DNA from: Burkholderiales bacterium
GTDB taxonomy: Bacteria; Pseudomonadota; Gammaproteobacteria; Burkholderiales; Eutrophovitaceae
Reading direction: 5' to 3'
Length of the DNA: 64,000 bases
Assembly (NCBI GenBank): GCA_030834275.1
Contig: JAURFP010000001.1
Span: 17,359 to 81,358 of the forward strand
In this document: piece by piece, positions 38,525 to 43,251 of the stretch
How the letters are laid out: each line of letters starts with the position of its first letter
Position numbering within the stretch: the first letter of the stretch is position 1
The notes under the pieces: model-generated
Told to the model about the DNA's origin: nothing
What the model saw: only the letters and a program-made list of their open reading frames with translations
Database searches by the model: none
Made by a program: the position numbers and the translations under genes

Positions 38525-40084
38525 ATGGATCACATAGAACCCAAATTTCTCAGCCAAATTCGGAGGGGAATTGAAAAAGAGAGTCTGCGCGTTTCTCCTG
38601 ACGGGAACCTGAGTACTCTCTCACACCCAATCGCGCTTGGGTCGCCGCTCACACACTCAAATATAACAACTGACTTTTCTGAAGCTCAACTGGAGCTCAT
38701 TACTGACACACATCAGAACTTAGACGCTTGCCTTCAACAACTAAAAGATGTCCATCAATTTGTCTACCAGAACCTAGGGGCTGAGTTGCTTTGGTGCTCG
38801 AGTATGCCGTGCTCACTACCAAGAGACGATCTCATTCCAATCGCAACTTATGGATCATCAAACATTGCGAAAGCAAAAACGACCTACAGGAGAGGGTTAG
38901 CCGTACGCTATGGCAGAACCATGCAAACAATCTCTGGTATTCACTATAACTTCTCCCTTCCTAGTGAATATTGGACGGATACAGATGTAGATCTAAATAC
39001 TGAAAAAATTCGTCGTAACGAGGCGTACTTCGGGCTAATAAGAAATTTCAGAAGATACGCGTGGCTGCTTTTGTATTTATTCGGGGCCTCTCCAGCGGTA
39101 TGTCAATGCTTCGTCGAAGGACGTGTTCATCAACTGAAGACTCTGAGTAAAAATACGAGATATTTACCCTATGCGACGTCTCTTAGAATGGGTCCACTCG
39201 GTTACCAAAGTGACGTTCAATCATCGATTTCGGTGAGTTATAACGACCTAGCTGACTATTCCTCGTCACTTTTCGATGCGCTCACCAAACCATTCCCCCC
39301 TTACTCTGCTATCGGCCTCAAAAATAGAGACGGGGAATATCAACAACTCTCAACTTCACTACTTCAAATTGAAAACGAATTTTATGGAACGATTCGTCCA
39401 AAACAACCAGTGCAATTGGGGGAACGTCCCCTTCACGCCCTAAACAGTAGAGGCGTTGAGTACGTCGAAGTTAGATGTATTGATATCGACCCTTACTCGC
39501 CGATTGGTATTAACGAGAAAACGAGCGCATTTATCGACACATTCTTACTATTTTGCATGCTCTCGCCAAGCCCTAAAGATAGTCCAGAAGAAAATAAAAC
39601 CAATGGTAGAAATCAATATTTGATAGCGGAACGCGGCAGGGAACCGGGAATCAAGCTGATTCGTGGGAACGAGCACATAGCAATGAAAGACTGGGGGAAA
39701 GAAATTATCGACCGGTGTGTGCCAATTGCTGAGCAACTCGACTACGCCAATAAAACGACACGCCACACAAGTGCTGTCGAGTCGGCTCGGGAAAAATTAG
39801 ATCTGCCAAATGCGACTCCATCGGGAAAAATCTTGCACGAAATTCAAGAGAAATTTAATGGATCGTACTTTGATTTCGTGATGGATTTATCTTCGAAATA
39901 CGCATCAGACGCGCACAACAAAGAAAGATGTATTGAGTCTCACACGGACTTGCAACTTGACGCTCAAATGTCACTCGAGAGACAAAGACAGATAGAAAGT
40001 ACTGATCAGATTTCTTTTGATGAGTTTCGAGAGGCTTACATATCGCAAGAAGCCTCTCGAATTTATCTCACACAAAAAAACTAA
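38525..40084 (+). CDS. gshA: Glutamate--cysteine ligase (type 1)
   Basis: 519 aa. RGIEKESLRV near the N-terminus, and the length and overall pattern match proteobacterial GshA. Confidence 0.85.
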   Translation: MDHIEPKFLSQIRRGIEKESLRVSPDGNLSTLSHPIALGSPLTHSNITTDFSEAQLELITDTHQNLDACLQQLKDVHQFVYQNLGAELLWCSSMPCSLPRDDLIPIATYGSSNIAKAKTTYRRGLAVRYGRTMQTISGIHYNFSLPSEYWTDTDVDLNTEKIRRNEAYFGLIRNFRRYAWLLLYLFGASPAVCQCFVEGRVHQLKTLSKNTRYLPYATSLRMGPLGYQSDVQSSISVSYNDLADYSSSLFDALTKPFPPYSAIGLKNRDGEYQQLSTSLLQIENEFYGTIRPKQPVQLGERPLHALNSRGVEYVEVRCIDIDPYSPIGINEKTSAFIDTFLLFCMLSPSPKDSPEENKTNGRNQYLIAERGREPGIKLIRGNEHIAMKDWGKEIIDRCVPIAEQLDYANKTTRHTSAVESAREKLDLPNATPSGKILHEIQEKFNGSYFDFVMDLSSKYASDAHNKERCIESHTDLQLDAQMSLERQRQIESTDQISFDEFREAYISQEASRIYLTQKN

Positions 40085-40860
40085 AAAGCGCTGTTGTAGA
40101 TCCCACCATCGATAAGTAAACTCTGCCCGGTGATGTAACCTGCATGCGCACTACAGAGAAACGCACATGCTCTCCCGAACTCCATAGGATCACCGAAACG
40201 CTTGGCGGGGATTTGCTCGGATCTTTGTTTGGCTACCTCTTCAACCGTAATACCATTGTTCTGAGCCCACGCATTGAACCCCCCTCTCAATCGATCCGTA
40301 TCAAAGAACCCAGGGAGAATATTGTTCACAGTTACATTGTGATGCGCTACCGTTCGGGCAACACCTGCTAAAAATGCTGTGAGGCCCGCCCTCGCACCAC
40401 TCGATAAATCGAGCCCAGGAACCGGCATTTTTACACTCATCGAAGTGATGTTTACGATTCGCCCAAACTTTTTCTCAATCATACTATCGATCACTTTCTG
40501 GATAAGCTCAATGGGAGTCACCATGTTCATAGTCACCCCATCAAGCATGGCCTGACGATCCAGTTCACGAAAATCTTTGAATGGAGGACCTCCATTATTG
40601 TTAACCAAGATATCGGGGGAGGGGCATGCCGCTAGCACTTTTGCCTGTCCTTCTCTTGTACTGATGTCCGCCATCACGGGGGTGACCTCGACACCGGTTG
40701 CTTTCCTAATTTCTTCAGCTGTTTCAGACGTAATTTTTTCATCTCGACCATTTAAAGTCACCGAAACCCCAGCCTCCGCAAGTGCTCTGGCACAAGCCTT
40801 ACCAAGGCCCCTACTTGAAGCACAAATAATCGCGGTCTTTCCCTGTATCCCTAAATCCAT
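40081..40860 (-). CDS. Atypical SDR-family protein (catalytic Tyr/Lys positions substituted)
   Basis: Rossmann motif TAIICASSRGLGKA. At the S-x12-Y-x3-K positions the sequence reads ITSMSVKMPVPGLDLSSGARAG, with Ser and Arg in place of Tyr and Lys. Start ATG 40860 has a GAGGGAGGGG SD. Confidence 0.75.
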   Translation of the reverse strand: MDLGIQGKTAIICASSRGLGKACARALAEAGVSVTLNGRDEKITSETAEEIRKATGVEVTPVMADISTREGQAKVLAACPSPDILVNNNGGPPFKDFRELDRQAMLDGVTMNMVTPIELIQKVIDSMIEKKFGRIVNITSMSVKMPVPGLDLSSGARAGLTAFLAGVARTVAHHNVTVNNILPGFFDTDRLRGGFNAWAQNNGITVEEVAKQRSEQIPAKRFGDPMEFGRACAFLCSAHAGYITGQSLLIDGGIYNSAF

Positions 40861-40890
40861 TTTCCCCTCCCTCAAATATTTACAAATTCG

Positions 40891-41407: not shown

Positions 41408-42040
41408 TCAAGGAATTCCTAAAATTTTGTGAGTTTGTAAACTTAATCTCCAATGAGGGTTGTCTTGGCAATACTGAGTCGCGCTCCGAATATTCTCTTT
41501 AACATTACTTCCGTCCATCGGTTGGATAAAAAAATGATCGAAATCCCATCCTTCAAACTGTTCTGGACTGATTCCCTCTTGGGGAAAAACCAACTTGAGC
41601 TCATTACCCTTACGCACGATGCAATCCGTTCTCGCCTTGGGACTCACGCACACCCAATCAATACCATCCGGCATCTCCAGGGTACCGTTAGTTTCGACTG
41701 CCACTCTAAACCCTCTGTCGTGCAACGCATTCACCAAATCTGCGTTCAGCTGCAAAAGAGGCTCACCGCCGGTACACACGACTAACTTACGACCGCCGTT
41801 AACAGGCCAAGTTTCATCAATTTTACTCGCCAAACACTCGCTTGATTCAAATTTTCCACCGTTTATTCCATCGGTTCCAACAAATTCCGTGTCACAAAAC
41901 TGGCATTCGGCGCTGGCGCGATCCTGCTCCCGTCCGCTCCACAGATTACATCCAGAGAAACGACAAAACACCGCAGCCATCCCGGTTTGGGCACCTTCAC
42001 CTTGCAGCGTATAAAAAATCTCTTTCACGGTAAATGTCAT
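41408..42040 (-). CDS. queE: 7-carboxy-7-deazaguanine synthase (radical SAM), short CX14CX2C type
   Basis: FYTLQGEG motif. The cluster motif is C-NLWSGREQDRASAE-C-QF-C. Start ATG 42040 overlaps the queD stop (ATGA). Confidence 0.85.
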   Translation of the reverse strand: MTFTVKEIFYTLQGEGAQTGMAAVFCRFSGCNLWSGREQDRASAECQFCDTEFVGTDGINGGKFESSECLASKIDETWPVNGGRKLVVCTGGEPLLQLNADLVNALHDRGFRVAVETNGTLEMPDGIDWVCVSPKARTDCIVRKGNELKLVFPQEGISPEQFEGWDFDHFFIQPMDGSNVKENIRSATQYCQDNPHWRLSLQTHKILGIP

Positions 42041-43146
42041 ACGGGTAGGGCAGGGCCCCTCTGACCCCAATCGAGCGTCACTCCACAACCGCGAGTTTCA
42101 TAGAGGTCAATTCTGTCAAGCTCTGGAAGAGATTCACTCAATGCTTGCTTAATCCAATTGGCGATGTTGAAGGTATCACTATTCTCAAGCCCATGTATTT
42201 CATAGAGTGGTCGATGATCAATTTGGTTAAATATGGGAGAAAATTTCTCCTTAACGTCACCATAGTCCATCGTCCAACCCATTAAACGATCAATGTCGGA
42301 CGTGAGATGTAACCGGGATAGGAAAGTATGTCCAAACACCCTACGATCTCCATCCTCTTCTAATTGCACGGCACTATCGATAGAGAAATCTTTCCAAATG
42401 CGAAATAGCTCACCGTCATAGTGTGCGCCACTCGATGCCGTTTCATACACGGTGACCCAACTCAGCTCTGGAACTTCGCTCTTAACCTGCCTCCAAATCC
42501 ACTCGGCTATTAATTCACTAGTGGGGTTCTCTAAACCCTCGATATCATTTAAGCATCGACGATGGAGTTGATCATGCAAACCCTTCCAGCATTCGCTCAG
42601 CCGCTCATACTCGATGCCGTAATTCCTATCCTCGATTGCATTTCGAGTATGAAGCAGCACTTGAAAGCCATGGCCATGCATTCGACCACACTTATGTCCT
42701 ACCGGAACGTTGGGCAAAAAATGTGCCGACTCGAACTGAAATTTCTTCCAGACGTGAGCCTGTCCATTTAGGTCGATATCCACCCCCTCACACGGAGTAC
42801 TTTGCACCCCAAGACGATCGACCCCCTCGACATTTAACTCACTCAAAACCCAGCGAGCAATATTTTCATCTGTGGGTATTTTGATGATGTCGTTAAGGAA
42901 TGAGTAATTTAAGCGATCAGTAACGGTTCTCAATAAATTAACTATCTGGCTCAACGACTGAAAATGATCATTAAAACCCATTGAGCTATCACTTCGTAAT
43001 TTTGCAACATAACTATGGCCATGGAGCCCTCGAGCAGGATGACCTTCCGGAAATATATCAACCGAACATGCGGCCTCGAAAGATGAAGCAGCCAACCAGA
43101 AAACGCGCGGATTATTAATACCTACGGGAAACTCCGATTTATTCAT
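42037..43146 (-). CDS. queD: 6-carboxytetrahydropterin synthase homolog built from three tandem PTPS/QueD modules
   Basis: The middle module carries [24 protein letters not shown]...[20 protein letters not shown], a near-canonical QueD signature. Modules 1 and 3 are homologous but have degenerate active-site motifs. ATG start at 43146, though the ORF is also open to TTG 43179. Confidence 0.8.
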   Translation of the reverse strand: [369 protein letters not shown]

Positions 43147-43251
43147 GACGCGTCTACTTTTGCGATCTTCTAACGTCAATTTATGACCCGAATTTAAGTT
43201 AATTCGTTAGTGTACGATAAACAAGTAAACAAATAATTTGGGGGATTGAGT

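Follow-up and report, generated by a model that had tools for sequence, protein, structure and literature searches.

In its canonical form, the T-fold enzyme QueD is a unimodular subunit of about 120 amino acids (aa), which assembles into two trimeric rings and has six identical active sites. Residues of different subunits meet in such sites. In rat PTPS, the catalytic triad is intersubunit and is formed by Cys A42, Asp B88 and His B89. The same arrangement is known for E. coli QueD, in which neighbouring subunits pair via β1–β4′ to give 12-stranded barrels, two such trimeric rings are stacked, and His71 of the first catalytic triad is contributed by a protomer of the opposite ring (PMC9894224). 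T-fold enzymes have been split into unimodular and bimodular subfamilies, QueD being listed as a unimodular homohexamer (PMC5699537). The QueD described here differs from this canonical form, as it has three diverged modules in one chain of 369 aa, with a single zinc/Cys centre. It is encoded, together with QueE, in a stretch of 64,000 nucleotides from a Burkholderiales bacterium (GenBank assembly GCA_030834275.1, contig JAURFP010000001.1, positions 17,359 to 81,358), which is referred to below as the window. The window is 94.5% identical in nucleotides, over 17.1 kb, to the metagenome-assembled genome of Candidatus Eutrophomonas brisbanensis (Burkholderiales incertae sedis).

QueD is expected to convert dihydroneopterin triphosphate into 6-carboxytetrahydropterin (CPH4). 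From this, QueE would make 7-carboxy-7-deazaguanine, on the way to preQ0 and queuosine. The two genes, and the modules within the first of them, lie as follows:

42037–43146, minus strand: tri-modular queD, 369 aa from the ATG at 43146, stop codon at 42037–42039; putative 6-carboxytetrahydropterin synthase by PF01242 and TIGR03367
42763–43107, minus strand: module 1 (residues 14–128), a degenerate T-fold
42409–42762, minus strand: module 2 (residues 129–246), the presumed catalytic module
42040–42408, minus strand: module 3 (residues 247–369), which no longer has the first His, the Cys or the PTSE motif
41408–42040, minus strand: queE, 210 aa; putative 7-carboxy-7-deazaguanine synthase of the Cx14CxxC type, by TIGR04508

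The open reading frame of queD reaches further, to a TTG at 43179 (42037–43179). The ATG at 43146 is, nevertheless, the more likely start because it fits the N-terminus of the family better. At the other end, the TGA stop codon of queD and the ATG of queE share the four letters ATGA at 42037–42040.

The assignment to QueD rests on several lines of evidence. The Pfam family PF01242 matches the protein in three stretches, with 173.6 bits against a cutoff of 22.4, and the QueD equivalog TIGR03367 of NCBIfam is passed with 139.4 bits against a cutoff of 89.25. In profile–profile comparison with unimodular QueD, identity is 50% for module 2, 32% for module 3 and 26% for module 1, and the match probability is above 99.6% throughout (99.6% for module 1). 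Judged by sequence, all three modules are true QueD homologues. The C-x3-HGH motif serves as the signature for classifying QueD (PMC9894224), and in this chain, the full signature of His plus C-x3-HGH is found in module 2 only. Thus, sequence, motif and gene context agree with membership in QueD, while two descriptors of the canonical enzyme are absent, namely the unimodular subunit of about 120 aa and an Asp-His pair within the sequence of the catalytic unit itself. The enzymatic activity of the tri-modular protein is predicted from these sequence features. Its partner passes the QueE family TIGR04508 with 345.7 bits against a cutoff of 240, and the cluster motif, read from the sequence as GC-NLWSGREQDRASAE-C-QF-C, is of the form C-x14-C-x2-C.

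When compared with E. coli QueD (PDB 4NTK, 4NTM and 3QN0) and the P. aeruginosa enzyme (2OBA), module 2 shares the C-x3-HGH motif, the first His, the Glu anchor and NPTSE. In the window protein, these are H142, C153-x3-H157-G-H159, E235 and N207-PTSE-211. The best-matching stretch of the chain is residues 130–246 against 2OBA and 132–246 against 4NTM. Module 1 of the window protein has Cys for the first zinc His, Ala for the catalytic Cys and Ser for the Glu anchor, and it keeps HGH. In module 3, the corresponding motif reads VFGHTF. The partition of residues between the modules was followed in 49 close relatives and in 75 cluster representatives, which are 23–49% identical to the window protein. 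For the latter, in E. coli QueD numbering, it is as follows:

H16 (zinc): module 1, Arg in 69/75 (Cys in the window); module 2, kept in 74/75; module 3, hydrophobic (Val, Leu or Ile)
C27 (catalytic): module 1, no Cys (Ala in the window); module 2, kept in 75/75; module 3, variable, mostly Arg
H31 and H33 (zinc): module 1, 65/75 each; module 2, 75/75 each; module 3, H31 in 35/75 (Phe in the window), H33 in 65/75
D70: module 1, Asp in 47/75 (Asn in the window); module 2, variable, with His 27, Asp 21 and Asn 16 (His195 in the window); module 3, kept in 74/75 (D310)
H71: module 1, Tyr in 48/75; module 2, variable, with His 24, Gly 12 and others (Arg196 in the window); module 3, kept in 73/75 (H311)
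T84, S85 and E86: module 1, Asp in 66/75 at the S85 position, the others varying; module 2, kept in 74, 72 and 75 of 75; module 3, lost
E110 (pterin anchor): module 1, Ser in 56/75; module 2, kept in 75/75; module 3, Glu in 27/75

The Asp-His pair, therefore, is kept in module 3 alone (D310 and H311) and is lost from the catalytic module 2. Just ahead of the pair, module 3 has a GWxxDYGDVK segment, which is invariant among the close relatives. The residues W291, D294, G296, D297, K299, D310, H311, P365, L367 and P368 are all invariant in the close-family alignment. The C-terminal tail WG..GPALP(V/I) (residues 361–369; 42040–42066, minus strand), which follows the last strand and ends as GPALPV in the window, is nearly invariant in the close family, while nothing corresponds to it in E. 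coli QueD.

The architecture was further viewed in an AlphaFold (AF2) model of the monomer, which is a confident one with three T-folds (pLDDT 88.9, pTM 0.87). In the model, the last strand of each module leads through a turn of 3–4 residues to the first strand of the next. Such short strand-to-strand turns are exactly what a fused ring would need. A Foldseek search of the model against the PDB matched each module to QueD and PTPS chains; module 2 aligned to QueD chains at 46–49% identity, with an rmsd (root-mean-square deviation) of about 1.4 Å. All these were single-module matches, with TM scores of about 0.31 when normalised to the query and 0.90–0.94 when normalised to the target, so no tri-modular structure has been solved. 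Uricase chains matched the model poorly (TMq 0.29–0.34, rmsd 12–15 Å).

A preliminary description of this locus, made from its letters alone, had read three PTPS/QueD modules in the chain, with His plus C-x3-HGH in the middle one only, Cys for the first His and Ala for the catalytic Cys in module 1, a degenerate HGH in module 3, and a short CX14CX2C type of QueE beside it. The domain scan, the profile comparison and the alignment bear out each of these readings. It had also proposed a single-chain pseudo-trimer with one intact site, and the domain scan, residue tables and AF2 monomer together support this proposal.

A mechanism can be suggested on this basis. Most likely, one chain would fold into a 12-stranded pseudo-trimeric ring, as three separate subunits do in E. 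coli QueD. From module 2 would come the zinc site (H142, H157 and H159), the catalytic Cys153, the PTSE motif and Glu235 as the pterin anchor. From module 3 would come Asp310–His311, which corresponds to the pair that the opposite ring contributes in canonical QueD. In the working unit, two chains would meet head to head as a dimer, so that module 2 of each is stacked on module 3 of the other. Module 1 would be mainly a scaffold that closes the ring and would face module 1 of the partner. Such a dimer would have two active sites rather than six. The decay of Asp-His in module 2 would follow, because the contact of module 2 with a dead module 3 no longer needs the pair. Ring closure, dimerisation and the pairing of module 2 with module 3 of the partner are what the structural model predicts, and we give the composite-site dimer an even chance of being correct. 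Equally balanced is the wider proposal that tri-modular QueD makes up a third, undescribed structural class of T-fold, which is a pseudo-trimeric ring acting as a dimer, with two composite sites, each shared by module 2 of one chain and module 3 of the other, and with a module 1 that either closes the ring or binds a ligand.

Several observations weigh against this mechanism. The PTSE motif of module 2 is itself strictly conserved, and the model offers no explanation for it; if PTSE acts on the neighbouring module, the copy in module 2 would be there for a site in module 3 that is dead. The equivalent of PTSE in module 1 is partly conserved (D93 in 66/75, E94 in 17/75). As the strictly conserved copy is that of module 2, conservation is ambiguous as to whether module 1 or module 3 is the in-ring partner of the module 2 pocket. 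Module 1 also has a conserved set of its own, with Arg at the H16 position and HGH, and this hints at a role beyond that of a scaffold. Finally, the window protein departs from the family consensus at F271, which stands for His in module 3, and at N80, which stands for Asp in module 1.

The same conserved residues would suit another explanation, in which the protein is a dual-function or diverged enzyme of COG0720, either PTPS-I/III-like and feeding folate synthesis, or with regulatory or second catalytic pockets in modules 1 and 3. Besides HGH, Arg and D93 in module 1, it could call on module 3, where H33 is mostly kept and H31 often so, and dual-function PTPS-I/III enzymes have reportedly been found in the COG0720 family. 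However, modules 1 and 3 lack Cys or Glu at the catalytic position and lack the full zinc triad. The conserved gene context consists of queC and queE only, and the genes seen to recur around the 80 loci that are described below included none for folate. A dual function of this kind is, thus, unlikely.

Tandem modules in one chain are not without precedent among T-folds. Bimodular QueF has its active site between the modules of one chain (PMC5699537). Like the protein described here, the bimodular T-folds (type II QueF, FolE2/GCYH-IB and urate oxidase) carry tandem modules in one chain and are a precedent for specialised modules; they have, however, two modules rather than three and belong to other enzyme families. 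Five bimodular QueD-like proteins of 226–236 aa (P0230, P0231, P0242, P0250 and P0260) were met among the matches of the 50%-cluster search. Their N-terminal module has no Cys, keeps the zinc His, and keeps LDH in 5/5, and, canonical QueD aside, its profile is the one nearest to module 3. Their C-terminal module has C-x3-HGH, an N/YPT-x-E motif and the Glu anchor. By sequence, the bimodular proteins follow the same rule as the tri-modular one, in that the Cys-less module keeps Asp-His. The order is, however, opposite to that of the tri-modular protein, the donor-like module coming first, and two modules cannot tile a three-module ring. No description of this bimodular class was met in the literature either.

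Another described relative is QueD2, a low-zinc paralogue with a Cx4HGH motif, which in A. baumannii (PDB 7V0F) forms tetrameric rings, hence an octamer, with a second zinc site (PMC9894224). A 'cluster 10' form of QueD2 has an extra N-terminal domain (PMC9894224). QueD2 resembles the window protein in belonging to COG0720, in having some members with added domains, in making CPH4, and in the opposite-ring His at the catalytic metal. The window protein, unlike QueD2, has Cx3HGH, and no QueD2-specific feature was seen in it. The QueD2 study sorted 34,387 PTPS sequences into 111 clusters, and the three-module form is not mentioned in its main text (PMC9894224). No description of a three-module T-fold was found in the searchable literature. 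Tri-modular QueD is, thus, apparently undescribed. The novelty lies in architecture and mechanism and not in function, because databases already name these proteins QueD. A tri-modular class would be added to the unimodular and bimodular classes of the reviews.

The tri-modular form is by no means rare. A search of 5.8 billion proteins returned 2686 homologues. The top 120 of these are all 362–383 aa long and 51–58% identical to the query, apart from one at 96%, with a query coverage of 92–100%, and several of the top homologues are already labelled 6-carboxytetrahydropterin synthase. With HMMER over representatives of 50%-identity clusters, 106 clusters were found at E<=1e-30, mostly of 320–380 aa and aligned end to end. 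In a genome scan with one genome per GTDB species, at least 578 stretches encode a relative; the locus counts given here are for the best 80 of these. The protein is full length in 80/80 inspected loci. They include Burkholderiales (Roseateles, Rhizobacter, Rhodoferax, Polynucleobacter, Leptothrix and Zeimonas), Nitrosomonadaceae, Methylophilaceae and Magnetococcales, as well as Gammaproteobacteria such as Allochromatium, Thiothrix, Competibacter, Plasticicumulans and Methylolobus, with Chromatiales and Methylococcales also represented. In viral contigs, the tri-modular form was not met; only unimodular QueD was found there, in matches of 330–490 nt. Tri-modular QueD is, thus, common in Beta- and Gammaproteobacteria and is not specific to the window.

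The gene context of these relatives is of the kind known for QueD. As in E. coli, the partner is QueE, and the operon logic with QueC is the same. In 75/80 loci, queE lies directly downstream of tri-modular queD. Upstream data were available for 77 of the 80 loci; queC is directly upstream in 32/77 and within 1.5 kb in 3 more. The cluster is identified as QueC through TIGR00364, with 209 bits where the cutoff is 150. Thus, the typical setting is queC-queD-queE or queD-queE. No queC lies within 8 kb in 42/77 of the loci, and its absence at the window locus is, therefore, not unusual. Going by family size and the queE/queC context, many Burkholderiales, Chromatiales and their relatives would, therefore, use the tri-modular protein as their routine QueD.

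It might still be argued that a canonical unimodular QueD elsewhere does the work, and that the tri-modular gene is a paralogue, either non-catalytic or redundant. As local neighbourhoods only were viewed, there is room for a second queD in other parts of these genomes. For the window organism, too, the copy number of queD and the absence of queC, queF and tgt were viewed within the 64-kb window only, and this tells against too firm a reading of the locus. Against a redundant paralogue, the catalytic residues of module 2 are kept (72–75 of 75) across the diverse cluster representatives, the gene fills the queD slot in queC-queD-queE operons, and here it is translationally coupled to queE. We consider such a paralogue very unlikely. 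Very probably, the locus holds an ordinary housekeeping queD-queE pair for the queuosine precursor, to which the neighbouring genes show no link.

The family is of interest chiefly for its chain. If the composite-site dimer is true, the family would serve as a natural experiment, in which what the QueD/PTPS active site receives in cis can be told apart from what it receives in trans. A homo-oligomeric T-fold ring would have been fixed within a single chain and later reduced to one active site per ring. The trans-supplied Asp-His would survive only in the module placed to donate it, and a testable map of cis and trans contacts would be at hand. It would also illustrate how subfunctionalisation can follow an internal triplication, in a protein that hundreds of species carry.

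The genes that adjoin the pair at the window locus are:

40891–41400, minus strand: Sel1-repeat gene, 169 aa, 7 nt 3′ of queE (PF08238, 65.9 bits)
40081–40860, minus strand: downstream atypical SDR, 259 aa, 30 nt 3′ of the Sel1 gene (PF13561 and PF00106)
43252–44046, plus strand: divergent classical SDR (PF00106, 156 bits), with the YGFSK motif intact

The genes of QueD, QueE, the Sel1 protein and the downstream SDR are co-directional on the minus strand. A GGGAGGGG ribosome-binding site lies in the 30-nt spacer ahead of the SDR start codon (ATG at 40860). No terminator-like site was found on the minus strand between the four genes, in a promoter and terminator scan that stayed at background level. 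With such short spacers and nothing like a terminator in between, co-transcription of the four genes is probable in this genome or lineage, but membership in one pathway does not follow from that alone. At 40028–40059 there is a perfect 10-bp inverted repeat (CGAGAGGCTT, a 12-nt loop and AAGCCTCTCG), just beyond the stop codon of the downstream SDR and inside the convergent gshA, at its 3′ end; on neither strand is the repeat followed by a T-run. Motifs of QueC, Tgt, FolE and QueF were not found in the 64-kb window, and neither was QueC by tblastn. An Rfam scan of the window matched no family, preQ1 riboswitch included.

From this layout, it had been proposed that tri-modular QueD and QueE form, with the secreted Sel1 protein and the SDRs on either side, a specialised unit for a pterin or deazapurine side product, for example by a tetrahydrobiopterin (BH4)-like route with the SDR as sepiapterin reductase. 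The four co-directional genes with their overlap and short spacers, the unbroken minus strand between them and the lack of a nearby queC would all agree with such a unit. Moreover, the order queD-queE-sel1-SDR is held in 12 loci in which QueD is only 52–58% identical. These 12 (L001–L005, L007, L009, L010, L012, L014, L015 and L022) are the closest loci, and only in them are orthologues of Sel1 (43–58% identity) and of the downstream SDR (77–85%, one 99%) found after queE. However, the same 12 loci also retain gshA, the split chrA pair, GGACT, ABM and the upstream SDR. As the unrelated gshA, chrA, GGACT and ABM genes are kept too, the conservation of Sel1 and SDR is block synteny of one lineage. 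Orthologues of the divergent SDR (65–73% identity) occur only in this lineage block as well. In the remaining 68 loci, the Sel1 and SDR genes are missing from the neighbourhood, and in many of them queC is present instead.

The properties of the neighbours themselves also speak against a specialised unit. In the downstream SDR, YxxxK is replaced by SxxxR (LSSGARAGL), so that the catalytic Tyr and Lys are gone, and this is so in 10/10 orthologues. The protein is better conserved than its neighbours (77–85% identity versus 56–63% for gshA), and its family, with 8000 matches, is widespread at 70–83% identity. Relatives at 72–75% identity are found in an alphaproteobacterial metagenome-assembled genome and in Steroidobacteraceae, and que or PTPS genes were absent from 3/3 distant neighbourhoods inspected. 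Databases label it a 3-oxoacyl-ACP reductase or SDR family oxidoreductase. The Sel1 protein has a signal-like N-terminus (MKRSARYFIVAFLFLSLPVLANA/E, read by eye), and a periplasmic protein of this kind would have no obvious role in cytoplasmic pterin chemistry. A second Sel1-repeat gene, with a lipoprotein-like N-terminus, lies at 47962–48543 (minus strand), 7 kb from the one beside queE; Sel1 genes are, therefore, just common here. Nor does the locus show a PTPS-II paired with a sepiapterin reductase, as the motif of module 2 is that of QueD, with a score above the QueD equivalog cutoff, the SDR is without Tyr and Lys, and the pairing is limited to one syntenic lineage. No evidence ties the Sel1 and SDR genes to the que pathway, and they are neighbours only. 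A specialised unit is, thus, extremely unlikely. In annotating the locus, no new pathway has to be assumed; it is queD-queE, and the Sel1 and SDR genes are not to be counted in it.

Overall, the preliminary description is partly supported. What it had observed was confirmed, here including the four co-directional genes with their ATGA overlap and spacers of 7 and 30 nt, the want of queC, queF and tgt nearby (none in the window), and the atypical downstream SDR. The structural part of its interpretation is supported and the functional part is not. The architecture that it had called unusual proved to be largely the routine QueD of the clade, and nothing points to the side branch beyond plain queuosine that it had suggested, the relatives being set in queC-queD-queE operons. 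The pairing with Sel1 and SDRs, to which it had given meaning, is conserved only alongside unrelated genes, and the loss of Tyr and Lys is hard to reconcile with a sepiapterin-reductase-type role. Of the survey that it had called for, the spread of the form was borne out as wide, while a general conservation of the Sel1/SDR neighbours was not.

Some further features of the region may be mentioned. The gshA gene (glutamate-cysteine ligase, 38525–40084, plus strand) converges on the downstream SDR with a 4-nt overlap at 40081–40084. Near it are a GGACT/AIG2 protein with two gamma-glutamyl cyclotransferase domains (44008–44937, minus strand) and, close to both, a small ABM monooxygenase (44947–45255, minus strand). 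The order of gshA, GGACT and ABM is kept across the same lineage block, and the three may form a glutathione-turnover cluster. Adjoining gshA is a split chromate-transporter (chrA) pair at 37255–37779 and 37780–38460. Two genes with a class II aldolase/adducin domain flank the region (36414–37268 and 47159–47890, both on the minus strand). Lastly, two tandem paralogues of 286 aa, at 45422–46282 and 46297–47157 on the plus strand, carry an FGE-sulfatase (formylglycine-generating enzyme-like) domain, and both have signal-like N-termini.

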